The notes: generated by a model from the letters alone, not told the origin. Positions 3,528-45,985 are shown, numbered from the stretch's first letter. The stretch is DNA of 64,000 nt from an uncultured Bacteroidales bacterium (GCA_902798615.1 CADBXL010000029.1:3722-67721); one strand, 5' to 3'. Numbers and translations: made by a program.

Positions 3528-4290
3528 TTAATCCCAGAAAACGTGTTGATAACAAGTAACGGGTAACAATAAGAAAAATAGTGTAATATGCTGCCTATAT
3601 TTATTATTTCTATATATAATAAGGTATATAAACTCCTTAGAAAGATTTAGTAAAATTTGGGCATGCACTAAAATCCTTATTGTTACCCGTTACTGGCCGA
3701 GATTATCTTGCTTGTCGAGCGAGACTCATATTCAGATTGTAACCGTCTAAGTTGAAGATAATGAGATTGTTATGTATAATTATATGGCAGGGTATAGGCT
3801 GCTGACAGTCTCGATAACATAACAATAAGCATTAATTTCTGGCTGATTCACCTTATTCTGTATGCATGAAAAACGCGAAAAAATGCTCTGGTAACAATAA
3901 TTCCGTTAGTAAAGTTTCGGAAGTGCGGAAGTGCCTGGAAGGCAATTCTGAACATCCGAAACTTGGATTCGTAAATTTCAATAGCAATCACAAAATGCAC
4001 ATTATCCTTAAAAAGAACGTGAAAACCATTCCAAAGCCATCACCCAAACTAAATACTGGCTTCAATGAGATTTGCGAGAACTATCAACTCCCTCCGATTC
4101 AGATCCGTTCCAGGTCCGTTGTAAATCCGTTGTAAGTCCGTTGATGCTCCATCGATGGGAGCGAACCTGAAGCGAAGGCAGAACGAAGGCAGAGCGAAGG
4201 CACATAAGCATTTCTACCCTTGCAGTAACAGGTAACGGGTAACAATAAGGAATTTAGTGTTAGCGTACCTCATTTCAGGCATAGTACCCC
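3528..4290. mobile_element. Dispersed ~0.7-kb non-coding element, long copy 1
   Basis: Colinear with 19183-19846. Carries 28-bp sites at 3556 (+), 3666 (-) and 4232 (+), and 11-bp arrays at 4093-4200. Mobility is inferred from dispersal only. Confidence 0.7.
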
Positions 4291-4324
4291 TAAATTTATT
4301 TAATCAAAAGAACACCAATAAAAA

Positions 4325-4370
4325 CAATATATCTCCAATTCCTGATTAGTTTGGGATTGGAGATATATTG
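4325..4370 (-). terminator. Intrinsic terminator after the tandem paralog pair
   Basis: CAATATATCTCCAATTCC / GGGATTGGAGATATATTG stem with a T-run downstream on the minus strand. Confidence 0.7.
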
Positions 4371-4372
4371 TA

Positions 4373-5161
4373 TTATTTTGGAAGAGGTACCTCTACAGGA
4401 ACCATCATGAAGACATCTTCCTCAGTTTCCTTCTGGTTAATCTTCTTTTTCCCCGATTTTTGTTTCTGGGTACGCACAGGACGGACACTTAGTCCGTAAT
4501 ACCGTGGAGTGTGACTATCAAAGAACCATTTATCCTTATAGAATTCTAAGGTGACTGCATCGTCGTCCATACCCATATAGAGAGTACGAGACCAATAATT
4601 TCCACTAGACCCTGCAGTAATAATAATGTTTGCGGCTGGCAAAAAAATCCAATTGTCATTTTTCCTGCTGGTTATCTTTCTACCAGTTACGCCATTCAAT
4701 GTTGTCCATTCTGTTGTCGTATAGGTAGAATCGCATAGTTCCTTTATCTGTTCCAATGATGGCATCTGCCATTTACGCCCCCAGTTAACTGTTGCTGCAT
4801 CATCTTCAGGGTCGAGCACTTTCTTGTAGTCAGCTATGCCGCTCCAACTAATGCAATATTTCAGCAATACAGGAACCGTACAGTCGCAATCCCACCACTT
4901 GTTGTTTTCCTTTATAAACTGATGTTCATCAGATGCGTCACTTGTATAGCCTTTGGTCTCTCCCCACGCGAAATACAATCCAAATTCCTCTGGCTTGCTT
5001 GCACCTATGTTACAGGTAGCCCATAGTGTTTTGCTTGGAAGGCCAAGGTCAACGTATTCACGAGTGTCTTTAACCGTGCCCTTCTTGTCTTTCTGCGAAA
5101 AAGCAACAAGAGGAAAAACAGCCGTAATAATTACGGCTGATATTATTTTCCTGAATGTCAT
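4373..5161 (-). CDS. Secreted protein with YVDLGLPS/WATCNIGA domain (DUF1566/lectin-like), paralog 1
   Basis: Signal peptide, then EYVDLGLPSKTLWATCNIGASKPEE.GLYFAWGET and YWS...YGLSVRPV. Confidence 0.75.
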   Translation of the reverse strand: MTFRKIISAVIITAVFPLVAFSQKDKKGTVKDTREYVDLGLPSKTLWATCNIGASKPEEFGLYFAWGETKGYTSDASDEHQFIKENNKWWDCDCTVPVLLKYCISWSGIADYKKVLDPEDDAATVNWGRKWQMPSLEQIKELCDSTYTTTEWTTLNGVTGRKITSRKNDNWIFLPAANIIITAGSSGNYWSRTLYMGMDDDAVTLEFYKDKWFFDSHTPRYYGLSVRPVRTQKQKSGKKKINQKETEEDVFMMVPVEVPLPK

Positions 5162-5230
5162 AAGTATATTTTTGTTGATTTATAAGTTTTTAATGACTAT
5201 ATCAACGTGAGTTCGACAAAATATCATTCT

Positions 5231-6028
5231 TTATTTTTCATCGGGTTCACTTTGTATTATTATCAATTGGTCATCTTCTATAGGCATTACCGTTGCACCG
5301 TCGTCCGTTATTTCCGGCTTGGCTTCCTTTCTGTTTTTCTGTGAACGTACAGGACGGATATTTAGTCCATAATACCGTGGAATGTAATCATCGTGAAAAT
5401 AATCATTCTCTAAGAATGACAGGCTGATTGCTTTGCTATCGTCATCTCTAGAGAGAGAACAAGACCAATAGTCTCCTCTAGAGCCCGGAAGAACGCCTGC
5501 GGCTGGCAGAAAAATTGAATGGCCATTTTTCTTACTGGTTATCTTCCTGCCATTAACACCATTCAATGTTGTCCACTCTTTTGTTGTATAGGCAGAATCG
5601 CATAGTTCCTTTATCTGTTCGGATGATGGCATCTGCCATTTACGTCCCCAGTTGACAATTGCCGCATCATCTTCAGGATCGAGTTCTTCTTTGTTGTCAA
5701 TTATGGCGCTCCAACTACAGCGATATTTCATCAATTCAGGGTACTTGCTGTTGCAATCATACCATTTGTAGCTTTTCTTTTCCCACTGATGAACATCATC
5801 TGAGTCTTGTTTATAGCCTTCTGTCTCTCCCCATGCGAAATATAATCCGCATTCTTCTGGCTTGCTTGCACCAATGTTACAGGTAGCCCAAAGCGTTTTG
5901 CTTGGAAGGCCAAGGTCAACGTATTCACGAGTGTCCTTAATCGTGATTTTCTTGTCTTTTTGAGAGTAAGAAGCAAGAGGCAATAATGCCATAATAATTA
6001 CGAGTGAAAGTATTTTTCTGAATGTCAT
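5231..6028 (-). CDS. Secreted protein with YVDLGLPS/WATCNIGA domain, paralog 2
   Basis: Clear tandem paralog of 4373-5161 with long identical stretches. Confidence 0.75.
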   Translation of the reverse strand: MTFRKILSLVIIMALLPLASYSQKDKKITIKDTREYVDLGLPSKTLWATCNIGASKPEECGLYFAWGETEGYKQDSDDVHQWEKKSYKWYDCNSKYPELMKYRCSWSAIIDNKEELDPEDDAAIVNWGRKWQMPSSEQIKELCDSAYTTKEWTTLNGVNGRKITSKKNGHSIFLPAAGVLPGSRGDYWSCSLSRDDDSKAISLSFLENDYFHDDYIPRYYGLNIRPVRSQKNRKEAKPEITDDGATVMPIEDDQLIIIQSEPDEK

Positions 6029-6059
6029 AAAAATGTATTATGTTTATATGTCAGATGCA

Positions 6060-6226
6060 AGTCCGCATAAGTCCGTTTTCAGGTCCGTTCCTCTATTAGG
6101 CTTAAAAGCGAGGGTAGAGCGAAGGCATAACGAATGCATTTCGAGGGCACAACAGCGCTTCTAACCATGCAGTAACGGGTAACAGGTAACAATAAGGAAT
6201 TTAGTGTTAGCGTACCTCATTTCAGG
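6060..6226. repeat. Right-hand part of the dispersed element
   Basis: GTCCG and CGAA arrays, then GTAACAGGTAACAATAAGGAATTTAGTGTTAGCGTACCTCATTTCAGG, matching about 4115-4279. Confidence 0.85.
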
Positions 6227-7161
6227 TCTTCAAGGATATCCTCTCTGAGGAATGGCTTGAGCTCTTCCCAAGTAAGCACGAATGAAGGCATACCAACGGC
6301 ATAGCAAGCAATCTCGTATTGCTGATAGGTGAATACAAGTCCTTTGCCTTTCTCGTCAGGAGAAGGTGTCCATGCAGGAAGCGGGATTAAACCTTTGCTT
6401 TCATCAGGGAGCATGAGTTGTTCCATGAGTTGCTGATCGGTTGCGATTTTCTCATCAGCATTCTCGTTGAAATACTCTTTGAGGCCTTTCTTGAGCAATG
6501 GTTGCATGTCCTTGACGGCATTATCCTTTAGGAAATCCTTTACTATGCTACCGTCAGAGAAACGGAAAGTAATGCCTCCAAAGCCAAACACACCGCCGTG
6601 AGCACCACCTATATACGAATATTCAGAATCGTAGAAAACTACGAATGTAGAGTCCTCTGAGGTCTTGGTAACTTCCATTGAATAATCCCAAGGAGCTACG
6701 CTCTCCTTGTATTCCTTTCGCTGTTCTTCGGTGATGGTAGTGTCCTCTTCCCAGTATTTCACTTTTTCGTCATAGTCCTCCTTGGCCTGAGAATTTAACA
6801 TTTTGCTGACTTCCTTGCTATAATAGTCGAAAACACTCTTCGCGTCTTTTTCATCACCATTATATTTTGCAATAAGAGGTTTGGTGTCCTCCATTTGCGA
6901 GCCTTGATAGCTGCGGATGCTGTTGCCGATAATATTGACAAGGGAATCGCGAATAACTTGTGAAACACTATCCTTGGCTACAGGTAATGCAACCTTGATG
7001 CTGATGTTGGCATACCTGCTTGAATCGGAGAAGGTGTAGTTTTCAATCTCAAGGGGATAGGTAAATGGATTTTCTAATTCTGCTGTTTCTGCAGTCTTGT
7101 TGGTGCAAGAAACAAAGACAAGTGAAACTACCGTCAAAAGGGAAAAAAATCTTGTTTTCAT
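6217..7161 (-). CDS. Lipoprotein with DUF4163/DUF3298 (RsiV/PdaC-like) domains
   Basis: Lipobox VFVSC, GGAHG motif and FTYQQYEIACYAVG C-terminus. Confidence 0.75.
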   Translation of the reverse strand: MKTRFFSLLTVVSLVFVSCTNKTAETAELENPFTYPLEIENYTFSDSSRYANISIKVALPVAKDSVSQVIRDSLVNIIGNSIRSYQGSQMEDTKPLIAKYNGDEKDAKSVFDYYSKEVSKMLNSQAKEDYDEKVKYWEEDTTITEEQRKEYKESVAPWDYSMEVTKTSEDSTFVVFYDSEYSYIGGAHGGVFGFGGITFRFSDGSIVKDFLKDNAVKDMQPLLKKGLKEYFNENADEKIATDQQLMEQLMLPDESKGLIPLPAWTPSPDEKGKGLVFTYQQYEIACYAVGMPSFVLTWEELKPFLREDILEDLK

Positions 7162-7190
7162 ATTACTTTCTACTTTACTCTTTCTTCTTT

Positions 7191-8558
7191 TTACTTTACT
7201 CTTTTATTCCCCATCATCATTTTACAGAGTCGGTCTTGGAACATTCTTGCCTCTGCTACTGGAGAATCCTGGTGTATGATGGAAAATATATACCAATGAC
7301 CGTCATAGCCCTGAAGGTAGCCTGATAGTGACGAGCCGCCCTTTGTGACCAGAGTGCCGGTCTTGACGAAAATTCTGTCCCTATATTCTGCTCTAGCCAT
7401 TCTTGTCAGTAGTGAGCCGCATCTTGGACTTGCAGGAGAGGCGAGAGCCTCGTTGATGAAATAGTCTTTCAGCTTTTCATCGTAGTAGGCATATCGTAGC
7501 ATGTCAACAAGAGTGTTGGCGGTGAGGAGGTTGTCCGGAGAAAGACCAGAGCCGTCCTTATAGGCAAGCTGAGGCTTGGCAGGACGTGGGAACTGGCATT
7601 TCGTAGTATCCTCAGGAGAGAGAATTTCATTCCAGAATGTTTCGGTATAGTGCATCTTGTCCCATACCATTTCCCTTTTGGGTAGAATGCCTTTTTTCCA
7701 GTCGAGATGATAGAATAGGGCATCAGCCTTGACATTACTGCTATGGATGAGCATAGGAGTGACAATTTCCTTTATATCATGGGAAATCCTTGCCACATAG
7801 TGGTATTTCCCGTTACCCAGTTTTCCTTTTGCCTTGGCTGAGTTTACGCTATTGTCTTTTATGAAGGAAATTCCGTTGGCAGAAAGAGAAGCCATGAACT
7901 GCCTTGTGATACGTTCTCTGCCCTTCATGAGGAGTGGAGCCTTGTGGTAGGGAATATCCCATGTCTTGCCTGAAGGATGCGCTTTCAATGTGTCTTCTCT
8001 TGCAAGGTTGAGGATTACGTTACCCCTGAAGTTCCTGAAGCCCTTGTCCTTCATCTGTTTGATGAGTGGGGTGAAGTCGTCGAAAAGAGGGTCGTCGTCA
8101 GCTATAAGGAGAAGCGTACCAACGACAGTATCGCGTTTCATCTCTCCTCTTATTAGGAGTGACACGTTATAGCGATAGTTCATTCCAAGAGTCTTGAGGG
8201 CTGCAACTGCGGTTGCCACCTTCATGCAGGATGCAGGAGGCATACTTCTGTCCGCATGATATTCATATACCTGTGACTCTGTTGTCGCGTCATATACGCT
8301 GATAGCAATGAGAGAGGTGTCGAGTCGCATGGGGATATTTATGAGACTGTCCAGTTTCCTTGCCATAATCGTGTCGCAAGCCCTCATCTCGGGAGTTATA
8401 ATCGCCTTGGGTTCTCTTACTTCATCCTTATCCCCCCATGAAGTGTAAATCCAGTTGAATAGCCAACTGATACCCAAATATAAGATTATGATGATAGCCG
8501 CGAGCACACCAAGTGCTGCGGCTATACGTCCATATCTAAGTTTATATTTCTTTGCCAA
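7191..8558 (-). CDS. dacB: D-alanyl-D-alanine carboxypeptidase/endopeptidase (peptidase S13)
   Basis: PASCMK (SxxK), SSN (SxN), DGSGLS and KTG motifs, with an N-terminal membrane anchor. Confidence 0.88.
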   Translation of the reverse strand: MAKKYKLRYGRIAAALGVLAAIIIILYLGISWLFNWIYTSWGDKDEVREPKAIITPEMRACDTIMARKLDSLINIPMRLDTSLIAISVYDATTESQVYEYHADRSMPPASCMKVATAVAALKTLGMNYRYNVSLLIRGEMKRDTVVGTLLLIADDDPLFDDFTPLIKQMKDKGFRNFRGNVILNLAREDTLKAHPSGKTWDIPYHKAPLLMKGRERITRQFMASLSANGISFIKDNSVNSAKAKGKLGNGKYHYVARISHDIKEIVTPMLIHSSNVKADALFYHLDWKKGILPKREMVWDKMHYTETFWNEILSPEDTTKCQFPRPAKPQLAYKDGSGLSPDNLLTANTLVDMLRYAYYDEKLKDYFINEALASPASPRCGSLLTRMARAEYRDRIFVKTGTLVTKGGSSLSGYLQGYDGHWYIFSIIHQDSPVAEARMFQDRLCKMMMGNKRVK

Positions 8559-8563
8559 TGTTC

Positions 8564-10066
8564 TTAGTTATAGTTCTCTACAAATGTGAAAAGTCTGTTC
8601 CATCTGATTCCACCGAAACCTCTGCGGTCTGGGTCGCTTGACCACCAGATGAATATTGGCTTGCCCACGATATGGTCTTCTGGTACGAAGCCCCAATAAC
8701 GTGAGTCGGCTGAGTTATGGCGGTTATCACCCTGCATCCAATAGTAGTCCAGTTTGAATGTATAGGATGTAGCCACCTTACCATTGATAAGAATCTCTCC
8801 CTTATCGTTCACCTGAAGGTCGTTGCCCTCATATACCTTGATAGGGCGCTCGTAGATTGGGAGGTTCTTGAGAGTTAGCTTCACGCTCTCACCCTTCTTC
8901 GGAATCCAGATAGGACCATAGTTGTCGCGTGTCCAGCCATAGTGACCATTGAGAGGGTATAGGAAATCCCTTTCGTCCTCCGTGTATGGAGCTATTGATG
9001 CAACAATATCCTTTCGGCTCTTCAGCACCTCGTATGCACGCTTTGTAAGTGGCATATAGCCTAACCTGCTAAGCTGCGCGAGATCCTCGTTGCTTATACC
9101 GAGTTCCTTGAGGAGTTCCTCTGGAATCATACTGACGTTCAGTTTTATCACATATGAGTACTGAACGTTCTCAGGCTCTTTGTTTGCCTTGCCATCAAGA
9201 TAGATGATATGGTTCTTTATCTGAAGTGTCTGACCAGGGAGACCGACACATCTCTTTACATAGTTCTCACGACGGTCGGTAGGGCGGGAGTCTATCCTGC
9301 CAAATTGATTGACCTTTGATGCAATATAGCTGCGTCCGTTCTGGTAGATTTCAGAATACAGTTTGTAGCGTTGGAGGTCGGATATGGAATCAAGTTTCGC
9401 CGATTTCTCAAAAGTGCTATAGAAATCAGGGAGATAGATCATCATGTCAGGGTCTGTGATGTTATAACCCTTAGTGGCAAGATATGTCAAAGCTCCATAC
9501 TTGTAGCAGAACTCGTAGTAGTTGGTCTGGTACGCCTCTTCGCTCATGATAGAGTCACCTGCTGGATAGTTGAATACCACGATATCGTTCAGTTCCACAT
9601 TACCGAGTCCCGGTGCCCTGCGATAGTCCCATTGAGGCCACTCTATGTATGACTTACAGCCAAGCACAGGCATAGTGTGCTGTGTGAGAGGCAATGTGAG
9701 TGGTGTTTGTGGAATGCGAGGACCATAGCTTGCCTTGCTCACAAATAGGTAGTCACCAGTAAGCAATGACTTCTCAAGTGAACTTGAGGGAATTACATAG
9801 TTCTGGAAGAAGAAGAGATTGATGAAATATACTGCTACGAGAGCAAATACGAGAGCATCAACCCACGACATGATGAATCTTACAGGAGACTCTGCATCCT
9901 TCCACCATTGCCAGTTTATTTTCTTTGATATATAGGCATCATAGATGAGCGGAATGACTATCAGTCCGAGCCAGCTCTTGAGCCATAGTAGAAAGAGGAG
10001 ATAAAGCACCAGCACGATAATGAACTTTATCCACTGGAGCTTCATATTTTCTTGTTTCTTTTTCAT
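8564..10066 (-). CDS. lepB: Signal peptidase I
   Basis: IPSSSLEKSL, YVKRCVGLPG and GDNRHNSADSRYWGFVP boxes. Confidence 0.95.
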   Translation of the reverse strand: MKKKQENMKLQWIKFIIVLVLYLLFLLWLKSWLGLIVIPLIYDAYISKKINWQWWKDAESPVRFIMSWVDALVFALVAVYFINLFFFQNYVIPSSSLEKSLLTGDYLFVSKASYGPRIPQTPLTLPLTQHTMPVLGCKSYIEWPQWDYRRAPGLGNVELNDIVVFNYPAGDSIMSEEAYQTNYYEFCYKYGALTYLATKGYNITDPDMMIYLPDFYSTFEKSAKLDSISDLQRYKLYSEIYQNGRSYIASKVNQFGRIDSRPTDRRENYVKRCVGLPGQTLQIKNHIIYLDGKANKEPENVQYSYVIKLNVSMIPEELLKELGISNEDLAQLSRLGYMPLTKRAYEVLKSRKDIVASIAPYTEDERDFLYPLNGHYGWTRDNYGPIWIPKKGESVKLTLKNLPIYERPIKVYEGNDLQVNDKGEILINGKVATSYTFKLDYYWMQGDNRHNSADSRYWGFVPEDHIVGKPIFIWWSSDPDRRGFGGIRWNRLFTFVENYN

Positions 10067-10114
10067 TTTATTCTCTAGATTTTCTAGATTATCTAGACAT
10101 TCTAGTATTTCTAG

Positions 10115-10831
10115 TTAGAACTTGAACATATCATCGATAGTCAGCAAACCCTGATGCTTTGCTGTGTACTCGGCAGCAAGAACAGCACCGAGAGCAAAGC
10201 CCTGACGGGAGTGTGCATCGTGCGTGATGGTGATGACATCAGCAGGAGAGTCGTAGCTGATGCTGTGGATTCCCGGAACCTCACCACGACGGATATCGTC
10301 TATGCGGAGTACGTCTGGTGCTGTCTCGTGGAGAGCCCATTTGTTCTTACGGTCAATACGCTCAACAATCTGTTCTGCGAGTGTGATAGCTGTACCGCTT
10401 GGTGCATCGAGCTTATGAATGTGATGTGTCTCCACCATGTTTACGTCATACTGTGGAAAGTCGTTCATAATCTTTGCAAGATACTTGTTCACAGCAGAGA
10501 AAATGGCAACACCTACGCTGAAGTTTGATGCCCAGAAAAGGGTCTTGCCTTCCTCTGAACAAGCCTTGCGCACATCGTCGCCATGATTCTTGAGCCATGC
10601 AGTAGTACCGCTGACAACCTTAACACCAGCTTTCCATGCCTTGAGGTAGTTGTCGTATGCAACTGCAGGGTTTGTAAACTCGATGGCAACATCAGCAGAA
10701 GCGAAAGCAGAACTTTCGAAATCCTGTAGGTTGTCAATATCAATAATGCTTACTATCTCGTGACCACGGCTGAGGGCAATCTGCTCAATCATCTTACCCA
10801 TCTTGCCGTATCCTATCAATGCTATTTTCAT
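10115..10831 (-). CDS. dapB: 4-hydroxy-tetrahydrodipicolinate reductase
   Basis: GYGKMG, VSGTT, ETHHIHKLDAPSGTA and RQGFALGA motifs. Confidence 0.96.
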   Translation of the reverse strand: MKIALIGYGKMGKMIEQIALSRGHEIVSIIDIDNLQDFESSAFASADVAIEFTNPAVAYDNYLKAWKAGVKVVSGTTAWLKNHGDDVRKACSEEGKTLFWASNFSVGVAIFSAVNKYLAKIMNDFPQYDVNMVETHHIHKLDAPSGTAITLAEQIVERIDRKNKWALHETAPDVLRIDDIRRGEVPGIHSISYDSPADVITITHDAHSRQGFALGAVLAAEYTAKHQGLLTIDDMFKF

Positions 10832-10834
10832 AAC

Positions 10835-11917: not shown

Positions 11918-13166
11918 ACTTCTTGAATATAACGCAAGCGTTGTGACCTCCGAATCCGAATGTGTTGCTAAGTGCAGCACGTACCTCACGCTTCTGTGCC
12001 TTGTTGAAGGTGAAGTTCATCTTGTAGTCTATCTCTGGATCCTCGTCGCCATCCTCGTGGTTGATTGTTGGAGGAATGATGTCTTCCTGTACAGACTTAA
12101 CGCATACCATAGCCTCCAAAGCGCCTGCAGCACCAAGAAGGTGACCTGTCATTGACTTAGTAGAAGAAATGTTAAGCTTGTAAGCCCAGTCTCCGAAGAG
12201 ATCCTTGATAGCCTTTGCCTCAGAGATGTCACCTACTGGAGTAGATGTACCGTGAACGTTGATGTAGTCGATATCCTCTGGCTTCAGCTCTGCGTCAGCA
12301 AGAGCCTCTGACATTACGATCTTTGCACCGAGACCTTCTGGGTGAGAAGCTGTGATGTGATAAGCATCAGCAGACATACCAGCACCAACCATCTCGCAGT
12401 AGATCTTTGCGCCACGAGCCTTAGCGTGCTCAAGTTCCTCAAGGATGAGACAAGCAGAACCCTCACCCATTACGAAACCGTCACGGCTTGCAGAGAATGG
12501 ACGGCTTGCCTTCTGTGGCTCATCATTACGTGTTGAGAGAGCGTGCATAGATGTGAAACCACCAAGACCTGGGTCTGTGATTACTGCCTCTGCACCACCG
12601 CTAACGATGATGTTTGCCTTACCGAGACGAATGAGGTTGAAAGCATCTGCAAGAGCGTTGCTTGAAGAAGCACATGCAGATGTTGTTGCATAGTTAGGAC
12701 CGTGGAAACCGTACTTGATAGAGATGTGACCAGGAGCGATATCACCAATCATCTTAGGGATGAAGAAAGGACCGAACTTAGGTGCATCTTTGTGCTCTGA
12801 GAAGTATTCGAGCTCTTCCTGCATAGTTCTGAGTCCACCAATACCAACACCATATACCACACCGACACGGTTCTTGTCGATAGTTTCAAGATCCATCTGT
12901 GAGTCCTCGATAGCCATTGTTGCGGCTGCAAGGGCAAACTGACAGAATTTATCCATTTTACGGGCTTCCTTGCGGTCAATCCACTTTGATGCGTCAAAGT
13001 CCTTTACCTCGCAAGCGAAGTTGGTCTTATAGCGAGAAGCGTCAAACTGCTTGATTGTGTCAGCACCGCTAACACCGGCAAGCAGATTCTTCCAAGTCTC
13101 CTCTGCTGAAAGTCCAAGTGGTGTAACGGCGCCAAGGCCAGTTACTACTACTCTTTTCAATTCCAT
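11907..13166 (-). CDS. fabF: Beta-ketoacyl-ACP synthase II
   Basis: TSACASS, HGTST, KSMTGHLLGAAG and SNTFGFGG motifs. Confidence 0.97.
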   Translation of the reverse strand: MELKRVVVTGLGAVTPLGLSAEETWKNLLAGVSGADTIKQFDASRYKTNFACEVKDFDASKWIDRKEARKMDKFCQFALAAATMAIEDSQMDLETIDKNRVGVVYGVGIGGLRTMQEELEYFSEHKDAPKFGPFFIPKMIGDIAPGHISIKYGFHGPNYATTSACASSSNALADAFNLIRLGKANIIVSGGAEAVITDPGLGGFTSMHALSTRNDEPQKASRPFSASRDGFVMGEGSACLILEELEHAKARGAKIYCEMVGAGMSADAYHITASHPEGLGAKIVMSEALADAELKPEDIDYINVHGTSTPVGDISEAKAIKDLFGDWAYKLNISSTKSMTGHLLGAAGALEAMVCVKSVQEDIIPPTINHEDGDEDPEIDYKMNFTFNKAQKREVRAALSNTFGFGGHNACVIFKKYAE

Positions 13167-13180
13167 ATAAAATCAATTAT

Positions 13181-13337
13181 GGCCTCTCCCCCCGCCCTCT
13201 CCCCGTAGAGAGGGAGCCGGAAGTAGAAAGGGATTTCTATTATTCTTTATTAGCCTGTCGGTTCTCCAGCTCCCTCTCTACGGTGAGAAGTTCGATGTTG
13301 ATAACATCGGAGTATGTGCAAAGCGGGGGGAGAGGCC
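13181..13337. repeat. REP doublet (family A) with a hairpin micro-insert in the second unit
   Basis: Unit 13181-13220, inverted unit 13266-13337 interrupted at about 13287-13322. The spacer resembles the reverse complement of the 2364-2432 spacer. Confidence 0.88.
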
Positions 13338-13345
13338 GTAGCCTT

Positions 13346-13398
13346 AAAAAAAAGAATGATGATTGGGCGATAAGAGTTTTATCGACCAACCATCACCC
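13346..13398 (-). terminator. Terminator-like hairpin after acpP
   Basis: TGATGATTGGGCGATAA / TTATCGACCAACCATCA stem followed by a T-run on the minus strand. Confidence 0.6.
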
Positions 13399-13441
13399 GT
13401 TGTTCTATCATGCAATCTTGAACAAAGATAGTAATCCGTGA

Positions 13442-13678
13442 TTACTTACTAGCGTTCTCGATGTATGCGATAGCGTCGCCTACAGTCTGAATCTTCTCAG
13501 CGTCTGAATCAGGAATAGTTACACCGAACTCCTTCTCCAGCTCCATGATGAGCTCTACTGTATCGAGAGAATCTGCACCGAGGTCATTTGTGAATGATGC
13601 CTCGTCCTTAACTTCTGCTGCATCTACACCAAGCTTATCAACGATGATGGCAACAACCTTTTCTTTAATTTCTGACAT
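13442..13678 (-). CDS. acpP: Acyl carrier protein
   Basis: [14 protein letters not shown] phosphopantetheine motif. Confidence 0.97.
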
Positions 13679-13903
13679 AATTGTAAAAATGTTTGTTAAT
13701 TAATTGTTCTATTTTAATGTATATTTCTTACTATTTTTGAGCGCAAAAATAAATTTGCGAGTGCAAAGTAACAAACTTTTCTGCACATAAGCAAATATTT
13801 TTGAAAAAAAAGTATTTTTTGTTGCTCAAATACCTATATTGTGTGCATTTTTTTGCACAAAAATGTACTTTTTTTATTTTTTTCTGTCCGATACAAAGCT
13901 TTT

Positions 13904-15541
13904 TTATTTTGCTTTGTCACTTTCCAAAACTTCCAAAGCTTTCTTTATTATATCGCTGTTCTCGTTCCATACTCGGAAGTATTCCGTGAGATCCCATAGG
14001 TCTCTTGCTATAAGCGATTTGAGTTGCGGACGGAGGTACAAGAGTGTCTTGTTCTTTTCTTCCTCGTTCTTTGGCTCTACCTTCTTCTTCTTTCCTTCTT
14101 CAAAGATGCTTTCTATGTAGCTGTCTGGAATCTGGTAGTTTGCATTGAAGTCTTCGAACGTCTTATACTGCTTCTTCAGTTTTGAACGGTTCTTGTCCAT
14201 ATACTTCAGGTTCGCATTTACGATAACCTGTTTGGCAGCAAGCTGTCTATGGAAATCCGTATAGCGTGTAGTGTCAAGAGGCACGAAGTAATCAGGCATG
14301 ATTCCTCCACCGCCATATACTGTACGCTTCTTCTTCAGAGTCTCGAACTTCAGGGAGTCGGCAAAATGTATGCTGTCGGCATTGGTGAACTCGCCATGCT
14401 TGAAGCGGTTGTCGAGGTCATGGGCATACGCTTCCTTTTCACCTTTTTTATATGGCTTCTGAATACAGCGTCCTGACGGGGTGTAGTAATGTGCCACGGT
14501 CAGGCGTATCATGCTGCCGTCTGTTAATTCAACAGGCTTCTGTACAAGACCTTTACCAAATGTCCTGCGACCGACGATGATACCTCTGTCCTGATCTTGA
14601 ATGGCACCGCTTACAATCTCGGCTGCCGATGCTGTGAACTCGTTGGTAAGGATTACCACTCTGCCATCCTGCATTATTCCGTTACCCTTTGCCCTGAACT
14701 CCTGTCTGCGAATAACCCTGCCCTGAGTATATACTATAAGCTCATCTTTGGCTAAGAACTCGTTAGCAATATCAACGGCTGCCTGCAGATAGCCGCCACC
14801 ATTGTCTTCAAGGTCGATGATGATATCGCGCATACCATTCTTCTTGAGTTCCCTCATTCCCTCAACAAACTCTTCGTAGGTTGTCGCGCCGAAGTTACCG
14901 ATACGGATATAGCCTATCTGCGGACGTATCATATATACCGCGTCAATTGACTTGACAGGAATCTTGTCTCTTGTCACAACGAAATACTGCAAGTCCTTGA
15001 TGCCGCTTCTCAATATTCCGAGTTTGACTTTTGTGCCCTTAGGACCGCGAAGACGTTTCATGACCTCCTCCTTCGACATCTTCACACCGGCAATAGTGGT
15101 GTCGTTGACCGTTATGATACGGTCGCCTGCAATAATGCCCACCTTTTCTGAAGGGCCTTTGATTACTGGCTGTATGACAATAAGAGTGTCCTCAAGGATG
15201 TTGAATTGCACACCAATACCATCGAATTCTCCCTGTAATGGTTCGTTGAAAGCCTGTACCTCCTTTGGAGTAGCGTATGTGGAATGAGGGTCAAGCTTCT
15301 CAAGCATGCCTTTCAAGCCTGCCTCTGTCATTTTCTGAGTATCCACGGAATCAACATACAGGTTTTCGATGTATGCCATTGCCGTGATATATTTCAGTAT
15401 GGCTTCCTTGTCCTTGATGCCTTGAAGGAACTGAAAGAATTGAATCATGTTCGCCTTGTTTGCATCAGGATTCTGCCGTATCTGGGCGTTCAGATTCAAT
15501 ACTGACAATATTATTGTTAAAATTATTGCTATTCTCTTCAT
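13904..15541 (-). CDS. S41 family C-terminal processing peptidase
   Basis: Signal peptide, PDZ domain, DLEDNGGG, TASAAEIVSGAIQD and RTFGKGLVQ. Confidence 0.92.
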   Translation of the reverse strand: MKRIAIILTIILSVLNLNAQIRQNPDANKANMIQFFQFLQGIKDKEAILKYITAMAYIENLYVDSVDTQKMTEAGLKGMLEKLDPHSTYATPKEVQAFNEPLQGEFDGIGVQFNILEDTLIVIQPVIKGPSEKVGIIAGDRIITVNDTTIAGVKMSKEEVMKRLRGPKGTKVKLGILRSGIKDLQYFVVTRDKIPVKSIDAVYMIRPQIGYIRIGNFGATTYEEFVEGMRELKKNGMRDIIIDLEDNGGGYLQAAVDIANEFLAKDELIVYTQGRVIRRQEFRAKGNGIMQDGRVVILTNEFTASAAEIVSGAIQDQDRGIIVGRRTFGKGLVQKPVELTDGSMIRLTVAHYYTPSGRCIQKPYKKGEKEAYAHDLDNRFKHGEFTNADSIHFADSLKFETLKKKRTVYGGGGIMPDYFVPLDTTRYTDFHRQLAAKQVIVNANLKYMDKNRSKLKKQYKTFEDFNANYQIPDSYIESIFEEGKKKKVEPKNEEEKNKTLLYLRPQLKSLIARDLWDLTEYFRVWNENSDIIKKALEVLESDKAK

Positions 15542-15547
15542 AATGAA

Positions 15548-15737
15548 AGCCCCTAACTAACTTCTCCGAGGGGGAAAGTTTATATATAGCTTTATCGCTA
15601 TGTGGGGTGTCGATTATAAATTATCACTTGCCTTAGCTTGTTGAGCTTTAGCGAAAAATTATCAATTGGCTCTCCCTCTCCCCCTCGGGGGAAGTTCGAT
15701 GTTGATAACATCGGAGTATGTGCCAAAGAGGGGGGCC
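15548..15737. repeat. Degenerate REP doublet with hairpin micro-insert and a CTTGC..AGCTTG.TGAGC motif
   Basis: CCCCTAACTAACTTCTCCGAGGGGG near 15550, CCCCCTCGGGGGAAG[insert]GAGGGGGGCC at 15680-15737, and CACTTGCCTTAGCTTGTTGAGCTTTAGCGAAAAA near 15625. Confidence 0.7.
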
Positions 15738-17708
15738 TTAATCATACACTTCTTCTTCCTCCGGAACGTCTTCTTCTATGATAAGGTTGTCGATGATGAA
15801 GTTCTGACGCTCCATCGTGTTCTTGCCCATGTAGTATGCAAGGAGTTTCTCCACCTCGTCGCCCTTGTGCAGAGTTACCTGCTCAAGACGTATGTCCGGA
15901 CCTATGAAACCCGCAAACTCGTCAGGAGATATCTCGCCAAGTCCCTTGAATCGTGTAATCTCAGGGTCTGGTCCCAACTCTTGTATAGCCTGTATTCTTT
16001 CCTCTTCGCTATAGCAATAGCGGGTGATATAGTCCTTCTGCTTCTCGCCTCTTGCCTTGAGCTTCTCGTCCTCAGCGGAAATCACCTTCTTGTTCTTTAT
16101 CTTCGCACGCTTGTTGCGTACACGAAACAGAGGCGTCTGCAATACATATACGTGTCCTTTTTTAATAAGGTCGGGGAAGAATTGCAGGAAGAACGTTATA
16201 ATAAGGAGTCGGATGTGCATACCGTCCACATCGGCATCGGTAGCCACTATCACCTTATTATATCTGAGTCCGTCGAGACCGTCCTCTATGTCGAGAGCTG
16301 CCTGAAGAAGATTGAACTCCTCATTCTCATATACCACCTTCTTTGTAAGTCCATAGCAGTTGAGCGGCTTACCGCGAAGAGAGAACACAGCCTGTGTGTT
16401 CACGTCACGGCTCTTTGTGATACTTCCGCTCGCAGAGTCACCCTCTGTGATGAATATGCTCGACTCTTCCTTACGGTCGTTCTTCACGTCGGAATAGTGG
16501 ATACGGCAGTCGCGCAGCTTACGGTTATGCAGATTAGCCTTCTTCGCACGTTCACGTGCGAGCTTGGTAACTCCTGCCATAGCCTTGCGCTCCTTCTCAC
16601 TCTCGGTAATCTTCTGTATGATGATTTCCGCAATATCAGGATTACGATGCAGATAGTTGTCCACCTCCTGCTTGATGAAATCACCTACATATTTATTCAC
16701 GGAAACACCGTCAGGCGACATGTTCAGCGAACCGAGCTTGATCTTTGTCTGTGACTCGAACATAGGCTCCTCCACGTTCACGGCAATGGCAGCCACAAGA
16801 CCTGTACGGATGTCGCCATACTCAAAGTTCTTGTTTGAGAACTCCTTGATAGTCTTGGCTATATGCTCCTTGAAAGCACTCTGGTGAGTACCTCCCTGTG
16901 TGGTATGCTGTCCGTTTACGAATGAATGGTACTCCTCACCATACTGGTTGGTGTGGGTAAACGCAATCTCTATGTCCTCGCCCTTGATGTGAATGATAGG
17001 GTAGAGGGCATCGCTTGTCATATTGTCTTTCAGAAGGTCCTCAAGTCCGTTGCGTGAGATAATCCTCCTGCCGTTATACATAATCGTGAGACCCGTGTTC
17101 AGATACGTATAGTTCCTGAGCATGGTCTCTATGATGTCATTATGGAAGCTGTAGTTGTGGAACAGAGTGTCGTCCGGCTCAAAGTATATATATGTGCCGT
17201 TCTCGTCCTCTGTAGGAACGGTAGTGTCGTCAACGAGCTTACCCCTCTCGAACTTTGCCGTCCTCACCATTCCGTCACGATATGAGCGAACCTCGAAGTG
17301 GGTACTGAGGAAGTTGACTGCCTTTATACCCACGCCGTTCATGCCGACCGACTTCTTGAAAGCCTTTGAGTCGTACTTACCACCAGTATTCAACTGGCTC
17401 ACAGCCTCAATCATCTTACCCTGCGGGATGCCACGGCCATAGTCGCGCAAGCTCACGCATTTGTTATCGGTGATATCCACCTCGATGCGCTTGCCCGCAT
17501 TCATACGGAACTCGTCAATGGAGTTGTCGATAGCCTCCTTGAGAAGAACGTAGATACCATCCTCTGTGTGAGAACCGTCACCGAGACGTCCGATATACAT
17601 ACCCGGACGGGTACGGATATGGTCAACGTCACTCAGGTGGGTGATGTTATCGTCGTTGTACTGTACAGTCTCCTCTATCTGTTCTTTATCTATGATTTCT
17701 TCGCTCAT
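15738..17708 (-). CDS. parE: DNA topoisomerase IV subunit B
   Basis: [44 protein letters not shown] and RFKGLGE, in the Bacteroidetes ParE type. Confidence 0.93.
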
Positions 17709-17761
17709 TTCTTTCCTCTATCTACTTTCCACTTTACTCTTTACACTATACACTATACCCT

Positions 17762-18907
17762 TTACACTTTAGAAGTGTAACTTCTAAGTCTCATAACCTC
17801 TCTTGAGTCGAGGTACTGCCATTGTCCGAGCACACCCTCGTTTGTCTCCATCATCGGCAGGGCGAGAGCCTTCTCGAAACCATACTTCTGATACCATTGT
17901 ATGAGGTCCTTGAAGATGAGGGCATTGGCACCCTTTGCCCTGTATTCCGGAAGCACGCCGCAAAGCAGGAGGTCAACGGTCTTCGTGTCGTGGAACTTCA
18001 GAGCCTTCAGCAGATGATACCAGCCGAAAGGCAGCAGCTTGCCGTTCTTCGTCTTCTTCAATGCCTCAGAGAAAGAAGGGAAGCTAACGCCGAATCCCAC
18101 CATCTCACCATCCCTGTTGTCATCAACCACTATGGTTATGAGGTTCAGGTCGGCAAGGGAAATATAGTTCTTTATAAGGTCATCAACCTGTGCATCGTCA
18201 AGACGAGAATAGTTGTATAGGTTGCTGTAGCATGTGTTCAGAATGTCGAAGAACTTCTTGCCCATACCACCGCTAACAAGCTCCTTCTTCGTCATCTTAC
18301 GCGCACGGAGGTTATAGCGTTTCTCAATCATGGCTGCCACCTTGGCGAATTTCTCAGGAACCTCATCAGGCACCTTAATCTCCAGCTGCACCCAGTCGTT
18401 CTCCTTCGTGAACCCGCCCATCTTCTCCATGTGCTCCTGATAGTATGCGAAGTTATGGTTTGAGTGCATAGAAGCCATATAGTCAAATCCGCTAACCTGA
18501 AGTCCCTCACGGTCCATATCGGTAAAGCCGAGCGGACCGATTATATTCTCCAATCCGCGAGCCCTGCCATACTCCTTCACCTTGTTGATGAGGGCAGTAG
18601 AAACCTCAATGTCGTCAATGAAGTCAAACCATCCAAAGCGTACAGACTTCAGATTCCATGTCTCGTTAGCACGCTTATTGATTATGGCAGCAATACGTCC
18701 CACAGGCTTCCCGTCACGATAAGCGATATAATACTCAGCCTCGCAGAAAGCGAAAGCAGGGTTCTTGTCGCTTCTCAACGTGTCAATCTCACCCATTTCG
18801 AGATATGGGATATCGGTTGGAGAATCCTTGTAAAGTTCGGTATGGAATCTGATGAACTCCTTGAGTTCTTTGTTATTGCTAACAGTTTTAATTACAATAT
18901 TCGACAT
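17762..18907 (-). CDS. GNAT-fold protein (YghO-like)
   Basis: VGRIAAIIN, VRFGWFDFIDD, GPLGFTDMD and GVLPEYRAKG motifs. Confidence 0.75.
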   Translation of the reverse strand: MSNIVIKTVSNNKELKEFIRFHTELYKDSPTDIPYLEMGEIDTLRSDKNPAFAFCEAEYYIAYRDGKPVGRIAAIINKRANETWNLKSVRFGWFDFIDDIEVSTALINKVKEYGRARGLENIIGPLGFTDMDREGLQVSGFDYMASMHSNHNFAYYQEHMEKMGGFTKENDWVQLEIKVPDEVPEKFAKVAAMIEKRYNLRARKMTKKELVSGGMGKKFFDILNTCYSNLYNYSRLDDAQVDDLIKNYISLADLNLITIVVDDNRDGEMVGFGVSFPSFSEALKKTKNGKLLPFGWYHLLKALKFHDTKTVDLLLCGVLPEYRAKGANALIFKDLIQWYQKYGFEKALALPMMETNEGVLGQWQYLDSREVMRLRSYTSKV

Positions 18908-18945
18908 TGTTATATAGGCAGATTTTTGACTTTTTAATTATATAT

Positions 18946-19035
18946 TGTGCAAAGAATCTTCGCATAAAAGCGAAAGTGCGTGTCAGTCTTAATGAAGACT
19001 GGCGCACGGTCTTTGATTCGCTGAGTGCAAAATTA
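18946..19035 (-). promoter_or_regulatory. TAATTTTG promoter plus conserved two-hairpin leader (copy C)
   Basis: GACCGTGCGCCAGTCTTCATTAAGACTGACACGCAC downstream of the -7 box. Homologous copies at 26646-26733 and 39314-39400. Confidence 0.75.
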
Positions 19036-19182
19036 GTAAAAAACTCCCATTTAGCCAAATTTATGAGCAAAAAAGCGGAATTTCCCCCGAAATTAATTTA
19101 TTGCAAGAATGTTCTCAAAAAGCGGATAGATTAGTTTCTCCTTTGCCAAATAGAATCAAAAAACAATCTGTTGTGCTAACAT

Positions 19183-19846
19183 AATCCCAGAAAACGTGTC
19201 GATAACAGGTAACGGGTAACAATAAGAAAAATAGTGTAAACTGCTCCCCATATTTATTATTTCTATATATAATAAGGTATATAAACTCCTTAGAAAGATT
19301 TAGTAAAATTTGGCCATACACTAAAATCCTTATTGTTACCCGTTACCCGTTACTGATCGGGATTTTGCTTGCTTATTGAGCGTGCCATTGATCTTTATAA
19401 AATAAAGATAATTAGGCTGTTATACGAAATTAGAGAGCAAAATATGGGCAGCTGATAGTCTCAATAACATAACAATAAGCATAAATTTCTGGCTGATTCG
19501 CCTTATTCAGTATGCTTGAAAAGCAATGTAAAAATGTGAAAAACATTCCAAAGCCATCCCCAAAACTAAATACAGGCTTCAACGAGATTCTGCGTGAGCT
19601 TTCAACTCCCTCCGATGTAGTTCCGTTGTAAGTCCGTTCCAGGTCCGTTTCAGGTCCGTTTCAAGTCCGTTCATCAATTAACCCTAAAAGCGAAGGCAGA
19701 GCGAAGGCATAGCGAAGGCAGAACGAAAGTACAACGGCATTTCTACCCCTACAGTAACGGGTAACGGGTAACAATAAGGATTTTAGTGTTAGCGTATCTC
19801 ATTTCAGACATAGTACCCCCATCTGGATATGCTCTGTTGGGTGGGA
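19183..19846. mobile_element. Dispersed ~0.7-kb non-coding element, long copy 2
   Basis: Colinear with 3528-4290, with 28-bp sites at 19209 (+), 19319 (-) and 19761 (+). Confidence 0.7.
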
Positions 19847-45900: not shown

Positions 45901-45985
45901 CAAGTATTCCGCAACACCTCGTTGACATCATCCCCACCCAACAGAGCATATCCAGACGAGGGTACTATGTCTGAAATGTGGTACG

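Follow-up and report, generated by a model that had tools for sequence, protein, structure and literature searches.

A dispersed non-coding mosaic repeat of rumen Prevotella with a sharply edged ~36-nt site that bounds gene cassettes

Results

Layout of the element in the window

Within the window, a stretch of 64,000 nucleotides from an uncultured Bacteroidales bacterium, a non-coding repeat is present as two full copies (about 3530-4291, and 19183-19846 or beyond), as a first-pass annotation of the sequence had indicated (Table 1). Their overall likeness is 75-86%. The order of the three sites in a copy (plus, minus, plus), a separate right-hand part (6033-6226) and about 110-125 extra base pairs in copy 1 were likewise confirmed, and the inverted tail at 45932-45988 was found to be 91% complementary to 19789-19845. 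The AT-rich core, described earlier as nearly invariant, contains a 32-nt stretch with 0-3 mismatches in 19 of 19 genome copies and at 128 other loci. The true perfect inverted pair is that of sites 2 and 3 (38 of 38 positions in copy 2), and site 1 is a variant (GAAAAATAGTG versus GGATTTTAGTG).

Other details of the first-pass annotation had to be revised. What had been taken for another copy at 63950 has no core nearby and belongs to the roughly 150 free-standing 11-bp arrays of TCCGTT type in this genome, and the site, taken to be 28 bp long, in fact extends over about 36 nt with sharp edges and three GTAAC heptads. A terminal GTAC-N15-GTAC motif is present in copy 1 only, most copies having GTAT...GTAC instead, and the 11-bp arrays do face each other but are not complementary within the element. 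Phased 11-bp arrays occur at about 150 loci genome-wide, mostly past gene ends. The right end of the element is variable, with the tail cut at differing points and at least two extension variants; in copy 2 it probably lies at about 19930. The minus-strand gene 6217-7161 has its stop codon within the tail of the right-hand part, and the solo tail shares its first bases with the stop codon of gene 45986-47068.

Table 1. Coordinates of the element copies, their parts and related features in the window.
Feature	Position	Strand	Remarks
Copy 1, left-end block	3530..3547	+	AATCCCAGAAAACGTGTT; kept in most copies (alignments)
Copy 1, site 1	3548..3583	+	Heptads GATAACA AGTAACG GGTAACA, then ATAAG AAAAAT AGTG; variant with GAAAAATAGTG
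Copy 1, AT-rich core	3584..3665	+	Invariant stretch TATATATAATAAGGTATATAAACTCCTTAGAA (alignments)
Copy 1, site 2	3666..3693	-	Inverted; two heptads only in copy 1
Copy 1, spacer B	3694..4092	+	Degenerate fourth site (CATAACAATAAGCAT) and conserved ATGCTTGAAAAACG block
Copy 1, own extra segment in spacer B	~3866-3990		~110-125 bp; further GGTAACAATAAT half-site within
Copy 1, 11-bp arrays	4093..4204	+	TCCGTTnnnnn x5, central short palindrome (GCTCCATCGATGGGAGC), GCGAAGGCAnA x3
Copy 1, site 3	4225..4259	+
Copy 1, short tail	4260..4291	+	TTAGCGTACCTCATTTCAGGCATAGTACCCC
Cargo, two paralogous genes	4292..6032	-	Genes 4373-5161 and 5231-6028 (262 and 265 aa); from copy 1 to second right-hand part
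Second right-hand part	6033..6226	+	Arrays, site (6172-6206), tail cut at CATTTCAG
Copy 2, left-end block	19183..19200	+
Copy 2, site 1	19201..19236	+
Copy 2, AT-rich core	19237..19318	+
Copy 2, site 2	19319..19353	-	38-nt perfect complement to site 3 (23039-23076 vs 570-607, 100%)
Copy 2, spacer B	19354..19610	+	With degenerate site block
Copy 2, 11-bp arrays	19611..19735	+	TCCGTT x6; GCGAAGGCA x3-4
Copy 2, site 3	19754..19788	+
Copy 2, tail and extension variant	19789..19930	+	Extension common to copy C3:70839 (GACTATnAATnATTCTGG...AAATTTGGATTTATCAG)
Solo long-variant tail	45884..45988	-	Without own site; closes the ECF-sigma islet
Free-standing TCCGTT 11-bp array	63943..64000	+	No element copy

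Copy number, range and constraint

The 0.7-kb mosaic repeat is present in about 20 copies per genome in a small clade of uncultured rumen Prevotella. We counted 19 cores and 114 BLAST pieces of the family in this genome, far above chance expectation, together with 59 loci in just seven other species-representative genomes, all of them rumen Prevotellaceae/Bacteroidales MAGs, and 69 further loci in rumen metagenomes. None of 200 genomes of the same family and none of 60 relatives sampled from the order carried the element. The origin-like role suggested for it gained no support, as the plasmid, phage and viral collections PLSDB, INPHARED and IMG/VR gave no match and the 11-bp "iterons" belong to a genome-wide array family. 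A single segmental duplication does not account for the copies, nor do they match the end of any known IS or ICE. Other repeat families crowd this genome.

As had been proposed, no ORF is conserved: homology among 78 copies is limited to about -200 to +650 of the core, and no longer copy with an ORF was found among 148 loci. The copies are intergenic, in many cases flanked by convergent genes, and fall together with synteny breaks and accessory genes; the placement of the terminal part at accessory-gene boundaries was borne out, and is extended by the site-bounded gene cassettes described below. In orthologous pairs, identity amounts to 96-99% for the sites, 93% for the core, 88% for the spacer and 84.5% for the arrays, a pattern that suggests purifying selection on sites and core. 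Many insertions are common to several species by orthology. The copies within the genome are old (75-86% identity), so that present-day mobility goes beyond these data.

A discrete ~36-nt site

The site is made up of three GTAAC heptads, AATAAG, N6 and AGTG, followed by a pyrimidine. We found 475 sites, in which the 12-nt centre is essentially invariant, and at least 25 unrelated sequences begin at the same base past AGTG. Its edges are sharp, and it stands as a unit of its own. Dyad symmetry and self-complementarity are absent from the 36 nt, the heptads being direct, and the bottom strand contains TTAC three times. Since the heptads place TAA in all three frames, a gene reading into the site would be terminated; 25 sites terminate open frames of at least 100 codons. 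Because the site is near-invariant in 475 copies while the adjoining spacer diverges by 12-30%, it is presumably recognised by a trans-acting protein.

Site-to-site segments differ between relatives

Coding or non-coding segments start directly 3' of one site and finish in another direct copy of it; at C6:24049-25663, for instance, direct sites enclose two genes. It is precisely in such site-to-site segments, both coding and non-coding, that close relatives differ, one having a segment that the other lacks. In G263, a 371-aa gene together with a site is inserted exactly behind a site that is single in G261 and in this genome, and the gained gene is flanked by an exact 40-bp site duplication. 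The segment carrying the Y1 gene (see below) is missing from G267, again from site to site. G263 and G261 have the same lipoprotein gene (82% identical) behind the element, each at a different locus, and the copy 1 cargo (two genes and the second right-hand part) is absent from the orthologous locus of G261, the closest relative. Some cargo junctions are placed behind the tail, not behind the site.

The state of orthologous loci varies between empty, solo and full. At the C14 locus a full copy is present in this genome and only left end, one site and tail in G262; because the relative has just these parts, the element interior behaves as a cassette too. Solo forms occur at C46 as well. The minimal form consists of left-end block, one site and tail (~80-150 bp). 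In the full element it is joined by a single, very abundant non-coding segment, which comprises the AT-rich core, the inverted site 2, the spacer, the 11-bp arrays and site 3. Between orthologues otherwise 98-100% identical, a break was located exactly at the site/tail junction. Module A (site 1, core and site 2) has TIRs of ~30 nt and is found solo, and a short TSD was not seen at its solo copies. For the whole element, neither a clean target-site duplication nor a precise empty site was found: at the nearest empty site (the C20 copy compared with G263 and G265) about 40 bp are replaced by about 900 bp, with no short TSD. Three copies have flanking direct repeats of 37-56 bp.

A candidate enzyme

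No recombinase or transposase gene consistently adjoins the copies, and none of the six tyrosine recombinases (Phage_integrase family) of the genome is near any copy or site cluster. The one candidate seen is a protein in which a Y1 HuH (IS200-type) transposase domain is fused to a DprA-like, ssDNA-binding domain. Its gene is a site-bounded cassette adjoining an element module in three genomes (this one, G261 and G263). Homologues in G262, G264 and G266 (58-67% identical) have no flanking sites, and the gene was not found in G265 and G267, both still element carriers. The HuH motif (EHFH) and the YIRSQ motif are invariant in 45 homologues. In Foldseek comparisons of the AlphaFold model (pLDDT 87.8), the N-terminal half resembled transposases (ISDra2, IS608 and RAYT), and DprA and ShosA were the matches of the C-terminal half; sequence matches to ISDra2 TnpA, IS200 TnpA and the RAYT family were weak, and the NCBIfam RAYT model gave 13 bits against a cut-off of 80. 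YIRSQ corresponds to the class-1 tyrosine motif Y-x3-Q, the RAYT type being YIxxNP (PMC6006769). The orientation of the copies agreed with the sign of the local GC skew in 8 of 19 cases, that is, without bias in this crude test on a fragmented MAG; an IS200-type single-strand mechanism would predict a bias, and the result counts against it. The link between the Y1-DprA protein, as candidate enzyme, and the site is weak.

Discussion

Comparison with known systems

The closest counterparts are BrickBuilt, REP/BIME repeats and integron cassettes. BrickBuilt is a MITE of Porphyromonas gingivalis with 19 copies per genome and a leader, an internal tandem array (a 23-nt minisatellite) and a tail; it is always intergenic, occurs in few species, includes many leader-only or tail-only partials and few copies with both terminal inverted repeats, and has short IS5-type TIRs matching resident ISPg elements (Klein et al., 2015; PMC4596501). 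The present element is like it in its Bacteroidales host, non-coding nature, leader-array-tail plan, intergenic location, narrow species range, partial forms, scarcity of copies with both terminal inverted repeats and similar copy number. However, the two have no sequence similarity, and the present element has 11-nt arrays common to ~150 other loci, three or four 36-nt heptad sites, an invariant AT-rich core, site-bounded gene cassettes and no matching IS.

With the REP/BIME and REPIN-RAYT systems it shares a short conserved motif dispersed both alone and as inverted pairs, module A being similar to a REPIN doublet, and the character of a mosaic, intergenic, vertically inherited and clade-specific repeat. 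In three genomes a single-copy Y1 HuH gene is likewise placed between repeats, but the homologues in G262, G264 and G266 are not. The REP unit, however, is an imperfect palindrome of 20-40 nt, whereas the present site is not palindromic and lacks a GTAG or CGTC tag; its inverted sites are 82-400 bp apart, those flanking the Y1 gene are direct rather than inverted, and the bounding of gene cassettes is not known for REPs. The Y1 protein also differs from RAYTs by its class-1 tyrosine motif and its DprA-like domain (PMC6006769).

Integrons (including CALINs) have in common with the present loci a gene-site-gene-site order in direct orientation, ORFs ending at or in the site, and non-coding cassettes, as well as cassettes of an ORF with its site that vary between close relatives and recur in different places, seen here as site-to-site gain or loss and as one lipoprotein gene at two loci. 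Nevertheless, there is no IntI, attI or Pc platform at the element and no nearby tyrosine recombinase, the site lacks the R''/L''/L'/R' imperfect palindrome, and its GTTACCC misfits the GTTRRRY of attC (RYYYAAC ... GTTRRRY). The arrays are moreover very short (1-2 cassettes), spread over ~20 loci instead of one, and carried by a Bacteroidota host. The pdif (XerC/D) modules of Acinetobacter plasmids, whose sites alternate in orientation and have a 6-bp spacer between inverted arms of 11 bp each, are similar in that short conserved sites of comparable length bound recurring accessory modules with no adjoining dedicated recombinase, but the present site is chromosomal and consists of three direct heptads with no dyad. 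As to IS200/IS605 elements and PATEs, the candidate enzyme has the TnpA Y1 HuH fold and the element shows no TIR-plus-TSD signature; TTAC, the tetranucleotide repeated in the bottom strand of the site, is the target of IS608. Subterminal end hairpins, tnpB and a GC-skew orientation bias are absent, and internal inverted sites are found instead.

Alternative explanations

If the element were an old, decaying MITE/REP-like selfish family, now without dedicated recombination, the cassette patterns would have arisen incidentally among dispersed copies, through homologous recombination, gene conversion and illegitimate recombination facilitated by homology. The age of the copies (75-86% alike, many insertions orthologous across species), the ragged right end, the mosaic modules and a genome full of other repeat families all agree with this explanation, as does the lack of a linked partner enzyme, and BrickBuilt is a precedent for a leader-minisatellite-tail MITE in 19 copies (PMC4596501). 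Terminal inverted repeats of ~105 bp (inverted tails) are present on some copies (C19, C13, L053 and L056), a minority, most copies having site and tail at the right end alone. The tail motif was found in the same genomes only and never bracketing a transposase, and no IS with matching ends turned up in any collection. Passive decay would also predict something other than sites and core evolving more slowly than the spacer around an essentially invariant 12-nt centre, although gene conversion could mimic it, and the gain of a new gene together with a 40-bp site duplicated exactly calls for a dedicated mechanism or an intermediate in circular form. On balance, we consider passive decay rather unlikely. 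A service to the host is more doubtful still: the element would be intergenic punctuation, a platform for nucleoid or topology proteins with a three-frame stop and a hairpin terminator or insulator, as proposed for REP/BIME. The usual location in convergent-gene intervals, the three-frame TAA with 25 sites closing long open frames (at least 100 codons), the phased arrays at ~150 loci, mostly after genes, and the apparent purifying selection on sites and core fit such a role. The element is nonetheless limited to ~8 species, close relatives managing without it, its state at orthologous loci ranges from empty to full, and the gain of genes together with a site copy is left unexplained.

Equally doubtful is a multi-copy gene for a large structured ncRNA, or a 3' UTR RNA element, whose transcription would start in the AT-rich core or arrive by read-through and whose fold would include the 38-bp site2:site3 stem. 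Rumen metatranscriptome contigs do span the element, with the upstream stretch 19056-19139 at zero depth in most runs, and the heptads of that stem show compensatory replacement of UA by CG (in 4 of 23 and 2 of 23 sequences) and several one-sided changes that preserve G-U pairs on the plus strand. The fold z-score of -7.5, however, has its match in the other strand (-8.2), the inverted repeat driving the fold, and compensatory changes occur in no other helix (covariation term -0.94). There was no Rfam match (window at gathering score; 19100-19950 at E<=1), and the core shows no canonical TAnnTTTG promoter on inspection. In three runs the conserved part had 1-5x the RNA depth of its flanks, versus 30-40x in DNA runs; the latter ratio is due to the collapse of the copies, so that RNA per copy is below flank level. 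Locus-specific contigs in X25 and X27 are as deep as the neighbouring gene. Solo modules and cassettes are also unexplained by an RNA gene, and the large ncRNA considered in the first-pass annotation is a weak alternative. Lastly, a recombinase might flip a promoter-bearing core, or the 400-bp spacer, between inverted sites. The AT-rich core does lie between inverted repeats of 28-38 bp and, at 82 bp, has the usual size of Bacteroidales invertons such as the B. fragilis capsule promoters, and site2:site3 is kept perfectly complementary. Yet none of 148 copies has a core flipped with respect to the arrays and block B (where the block is present), four DNA runs contained no strand-changing joints, and both neighbours usually converge on the element, hence there is no gene to switch. 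Such an inverton is largely refuted and extremely improbable.

A possible scattered landing pad for gene cassettes

We favour, with about even confidence, a non-coding, non-autonomous recombinational mosaic repeat in which the ~36-nt site is the working part and which would serve as a scattered landing pad for gene cassettes. Of the mobile unit with attachment-like and origin-like sites proposed initially, this keeps the former, in view of the dispersed and clade-restricted distribution, the presence or absence at loci, the solo versus full forms and the site-bounded cassettes, and drops the origin-like part. The dataset fits site-specific and homologous recombination alike, as RecA-dependent or slippage events between 36-40-nt repeats could yield site-to-site indels and sharp edges.

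Under the landing-pad reading, a trans-acting protein that recognises the site would recombine site-bearing molecules, probably via circular intermediates that integrate at another site, and the element would thereby act as a passenger and, at the same time, as a scattered landing pad for gene cassettes. A more specific version, which we regard as quite unlikely, is that the heptad site is the recombination site of an undescribed dispersed cassette system of rumen Prevotella that dispenses with an integron integrase. The Y1 HuH-DprA protein would cut and rejoin single strands at AGTG|Y, and site-terminated segments would leave in circular form and insert behind any other site. The abundant non-coding core segment would then be the selfish passenger of the system itself, and the ~20 platforms per genome would act as pads for accessory genes.

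Organization, copy number and host range

Copies of the element were 75-86% identical overall, with an almost invariant core and sites, and homology among 78 copies was limited to about -200 to +650 of the core. The site proved to be about 36 nt long, with three GTAAC heptads, instead of the 28 bp proposed in the first-pass annotation, and the perfect inverted pair consists of sites 2 and 3 (38 of 38 positions in copy 2 by BLAST). The element has a ragged right end, at which the tail can be extended in at least two ways, and the GTAC-N15-GTAC motif that was thought to terminate the element is not conserved. Right-hand parts were also found alone. Most of the first-pass description stood, including where both long copies, the right-hand part and the inverted terminal piece lie; apart from site length, inverted pair and GTAC motif, it had to be corrected at 63950, where the supposed further copy is just a TCCGTT 11-bp array, one of about 150 in the genome that lie mostly outside the element. 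The arrays within the element do not make a single long hairpin, since their TCCGTT units do not complement the GCGAAGG units.

Parts of the element, its copies and associated features (window, the stretch under study, C29:3722-67721; C, contigs of the source genome G000; L, related loci; G261-G267, related carrier genomes)
Feature	Location	Strand	Description
Inverted site and tail	left of left-end block		minority of copies; ~105-bp terminal inverted repeats in C19, C13, L053, L056
Left-end block	ahead of site 1		AATCCCAGAAAACGTG
Site 1	between left-end block and core	+	
Core	between sites 1 and 2		82 nt, AT-rich
Site 2	right of core	-	
Spacer	right of site 2		degenerate fourth site (CATAACAATAAGCAT) and conserved ATGCTTGAAAAACGATGTAAAA block
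Arrays			11-bp TCCGTTnnnnn x4-6, short variable palindrome, GCGAAGGCAnA x3-4
Site 3	right of arrays	+	followed by tail
Copy 1	window 3530-4291		
Copy 2	window 19183-19846		tail probably to ~19930
Right-hand part	window 6033-6226		arrays, site, tail
Inverted tail piece	window 45932-45988		
Solo module A			site 1, core, site 2; ~155 bp
Solo left end, one site and tail	C46:5546; C46:20373		~80 bp
Solo tail without site	window 45884-45988		
55-bp direct repeat	window 19097-19151; 20149-20203		85% identity
Two genes between direct sites	C6:24049-25663		
Promoter module	C6:20410-20470; C6:24077-24125	-; +	GAAGAAATTTTGTGGGGTGCAGGAnTATTnCTATCTTTGCAG; TTTG to TATCTTTG = 19 nt
Lipoprotein cargo genes	L113:1359-2372 (G263); L119:3453-4424 (G261)		323-337 aa, predicted; no Pfam family
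ECF sigma islet	window 45884-48431		ECF sigma, anti-sigma, secreted protein
Y1 gene	C6:19186-20367		398-400 aa; cassette C6:19169-20471
Further Y1 family member	L071:2510-3706	-	
Free-standing arrays (examples)	window 63943-64000; C2:77992; C37:18588	;; -	TCCGTTnnnnn x3-8
MITE	C23:43374-43636		~260 bp; ends ACGTGAGTTCGACGAA
Repeated leader	window 18995-19059; 26693-26757; 39309-39358		AAGACyGGCGCACGGTCTTTGATT ... GAGTGCAAA
GC-rich palindromic REP-like hairpins	window 2317-2471; 13173-13231; 28594-28778; 30367-30437; 35499-35591; 48671-48745		at least two families

In the source MAG (3.46 Mb, 55 contigs), copy 2 matched 114 pieces by BLAST and a 32-nt core stretch, TATATATAATAAGGTATATAAACTCCTTAGAA, occurred 19 times with up to 3 mismatches. 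Thirteen copies are full-length and six to seven lie at contig ends, which indicates that the assembly was broken by the element. Outside this genome, the exact core was detected at 59 loci in only seven other GTDB species representatives, all of them rumen Prevotellaceae/Bacteroidales MAGs (RUG14644, RUG12487, RUG14682, RUG12352, UBA1710 and two SRR1208 bins), and in 69 metagenome contigs; neither 200 genomes taken from across the family nor 60 "relatives" contained it. The DNA and RNA runs containing the element were bovine and sheep gut samples.

Several other repeats were observed in the same genome. Free-standing arrays, mostly located just 3' of genes, form a separate and much larger family than the element; in most of them, either a facing, nearly complementary array (GGGAnTTACAn) or GCGAAGGCAnA units come next, and where the arrays are complementary (TCCGTT/GGGAnTTACA), they would fold into long hairpins mismatched once per 11 nt. 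The MITE of contig C23, inserted within one heptad site with an apparent 8-bp duplication (TAACAATA), has ends resembling the IS5-type ends of P. gingivalis MITE239. Upstream of copy 2, and close to it, the repeated leader adjoins promoter boxes of the TAACTTTG type. None of the REP-like hairpin families belongs to the element.

Sites are junctions at which segments are gained and lost

A scan of the source genome and 128 related loci yielded 475 sites. What lies after AGTG differs by site: at site 1 it is the core, at site 2 the reverse core and at site 3 the tail, and elsewhere at least 25 unrelated sequences occupy this position. All these sequences start at one and the same base, always a pyrimidine, and the other edge, upstream at the first heptad, is as sharp. 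Orthologues that are 98-100% identical through site 3 lose similarity exactly after TAGTGT.

Comparison of related carriers showed that the site is a discrete junction and that segments come and go together with one site copy. In genome G263, the gene for a 371-aa membrane protein, whose stop codon lies within the heptads, is inserted with a 40-bp site copy directly 3' of a site that is single in G261 and the source genome, and in G267 the neighbouring 1.3-kb segment with the Y1 gene is missing exactly from site to site. On contig C6, two genes are enclosed between direct sites. Copy 1 is followed by a pair of paralogous genes and then another arrays-site-tail unit; at the same locus of G261, the element abuts the next gene directly. 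One lipoprotein gene (82% identity), in each case followed by a second right-hand part, was found behind the element in G263 and in G261, at loci that differ. The orthologue of the full copy on contig C14 consists in G262 of left end, one site and tail only, so the element interior, from core to site 3, itself behaves like a non-coding cassette in a minimal platform.

The heptads provide TAA in all three frames, and 25 sites end open frames of at least 100 codons. Orthologous pairs are 96-99% identical in the sites, 93% in the core, 88% in the spacer and 84.5% in the arrays; on this sequence comparison, the slower change of sites and core indicates constraint or gene conversion.

Two further arrangements were noted at these places. 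A 45-bp TTTG...TATCTTTG promoter module, with 12 copies in the data set, stands after a site in front of two unrelated cassettes, namely the two C6 genes and the Y1 gene. The ECF sigma islet, whose sigma factor was confirmed by PF08281 and PF04542, terminates in the long tail variant of the element, and the stop codon of its 360-aa gene overlaps the first tail bases (TTAACG).

Movement of the element and alternative readings

Evidence that the whole element moves is indirect. Orthologous loci were found empty, solo or full, and duplicated stretches of the local terminator, 37-56 bp long, flank three copies. At the sole close empty site, that of the C20 copy, about 40 bp were replaced, which is not a simple insertion, and at the C40 site the intergenic DNA is hypervariable in the distant carriers G262, G264 and G267, so that exact element ends are unreadable there. 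Four rumen DNA runs contained no population-level empty-site joints for copy 2. The flanking duplication of copy 2 is the 55-bp direct repeat at window 19097-19151 and 20149-20203, which encloses a further 300 bp or so. In G263 (L100), a different 2.65-kb segment lies between the same two repeats, and the repeat may mark another exchangeable slot. The element has no replication-strand bias, its orientation not following GC skew.

A protein would recognise the site and recombine site-bearing DNA, the simplest route being circles that would integrate at another site. Recombination driven by the 36-40 nt of homology alone predicts the same junctions as dedicated site recombination. We give about even chances to the element being a non-autonomous recombinational repeat; the non-autonomous mobile unit with attachment-like sites was the best-supported part of the first-pass interpretation. 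Neither an all-against-all flank profile nor ORF clustering round 148 copies revealed a longer copy or a common ORF, a tail motif scan of 185,579 species genomes returned no autonomous copy, and no tyrosine recombinase was found as a neighbour. Recurrent small plus-strand ORFs near copies were antisense artefacts within large orthologous genes.

An inverton was rejected, as none of 148 copies has an inverted core, spacer block and arrays always lie on the same side in the same orientation, the four DNA runs contained no strand-switch joints, and the genes beside the element mostly converge on it. The element is probably not an RNA gene either, contrary to the proposed large ncRNA. Rfam gave no match at gathering score and none at E<=1, the inverted repeat makes the two strands fold equally well, and among 23 diverse copies compensatory change was present in the site 2:site 3 stem alone and in none of the other predicted helices. 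Read depth was taken from eight RNA and four DNA runs as Logan contigs, which carry no strand information: the conserved part reached 1-5 times the flank depth in RNA, versus 30-40 times in DNA, where copies collapse into shared contigs. Per-copy RNA was thus not above that of the neighbours in these eight unstranded contig-level runs, a result compatible with a low-level transcript. The origin-like role also put forward lost its basis, since the core has no match in IMG/VR, INPHARED phages or PLSDB plasmids and the "iterons" belong to the genome-wide array family.

A candidate enzyme beside the element

In the source genome, G261 and G263, the Y1 gene directly follows a short element (module A, arrays, site). 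A Pfam search of its protein gave no match and the NCBIfam RAYT model a faint one; nearly all of its 727 homologues are unnamed Prevotella proteins, one being recorded with PF01797. H98 and H100 (EHFH) and Y186 (YIRSQ) are invariant across 45 homologues, and the Y-x3-Q motif is that of class 1 of the TnpA-Y1 superfamily, not of RAYTs (PMC6006769). The best PDB matches of the profile were the ISDra2 and Sulfolobus IS200 transposases (E about 0.1). AlphaFold reached a pLDDT of 87.8 on the alignment of the 45 homologues, compared to 29.6 from the single sequence. In this model, the N-terminal half resembles IS200/IS605 TnpA and E. coli RAYT (TM to target 0.5-0.65) and the C-terminal half DprA and ShosA, which predicts an IS200-type Y1 HuH domain fused to a DprA/ShosA-like domain. 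We found no description of such a fusion in the literature searched.

Homologues in G262, G264 and G266 (58-67% identity) lack flanking sites, G265 and G267 have none, and the family is patchy, sometimes multi-copy, in non-carrier Prevotella. Nor does element orientation track GC skew. The link of the Y1-DprA gene to the element is thus weak, and the gene may simply be cargo. Hairpin ends of the C23 MITE type were seen on both sides of the G266 homologue (L213).

Relation to known systems and significance

The nearest architecture is that of BrickBuilt of P. gingivalis, with leader, 23-nt minisatellite and tail in 19 intergenic copies and many partial forms (PMC4596501); among Prevotella repeats, PINSR of P. 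intermedia is likewise clade-specific and lacks TIRs (PMC4755523). In the way they behave, the sites are reminiscent of integron attC sites or pdif modules, but IntI and palindromic attC are both absent, and the single-copy Y1 gene, flanked by repeats in three genomes, recalls REP/REPIN-RAYT systems, whose palindromic unit and RAYT motifs are lacking here. Given the BrickBuilt-like architecture and the absence of the defining features of the cassette families, we filed the element among mosaic non-coding intergenic repeats; what is visible may also be one part of a new cassette system.

In livestock guts, rumen Prevotella belong to the most abundant bacteria; they are mostly uncultured, and their accessory-gene exchange is poorly known. 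Each genome has about 20 places marked by the element; there synteny is interrupted, and genes come or go with base-pair precision beside a conserved 36-nt site, among them genes for lipoproteins, an ankyrin-like membrane protein, the ECF sigma islet and the Y1 HuH-DprA fusion. With six to seven copies at contig ends, it explains contig breaks in carrier MAGs, and it is usable as a clade-specific marker. If no dedicated enzyme is involved, the family would remain a clearly delimited Bacteroidales equivalent of the BIME and BrickBuilt mosaic repeats. Should such an enzyme act at the site, the element would represent a novel type of cassette system that falls outside the integron paradigm, and IS200-type HuH enzymes might have an activity new to them.
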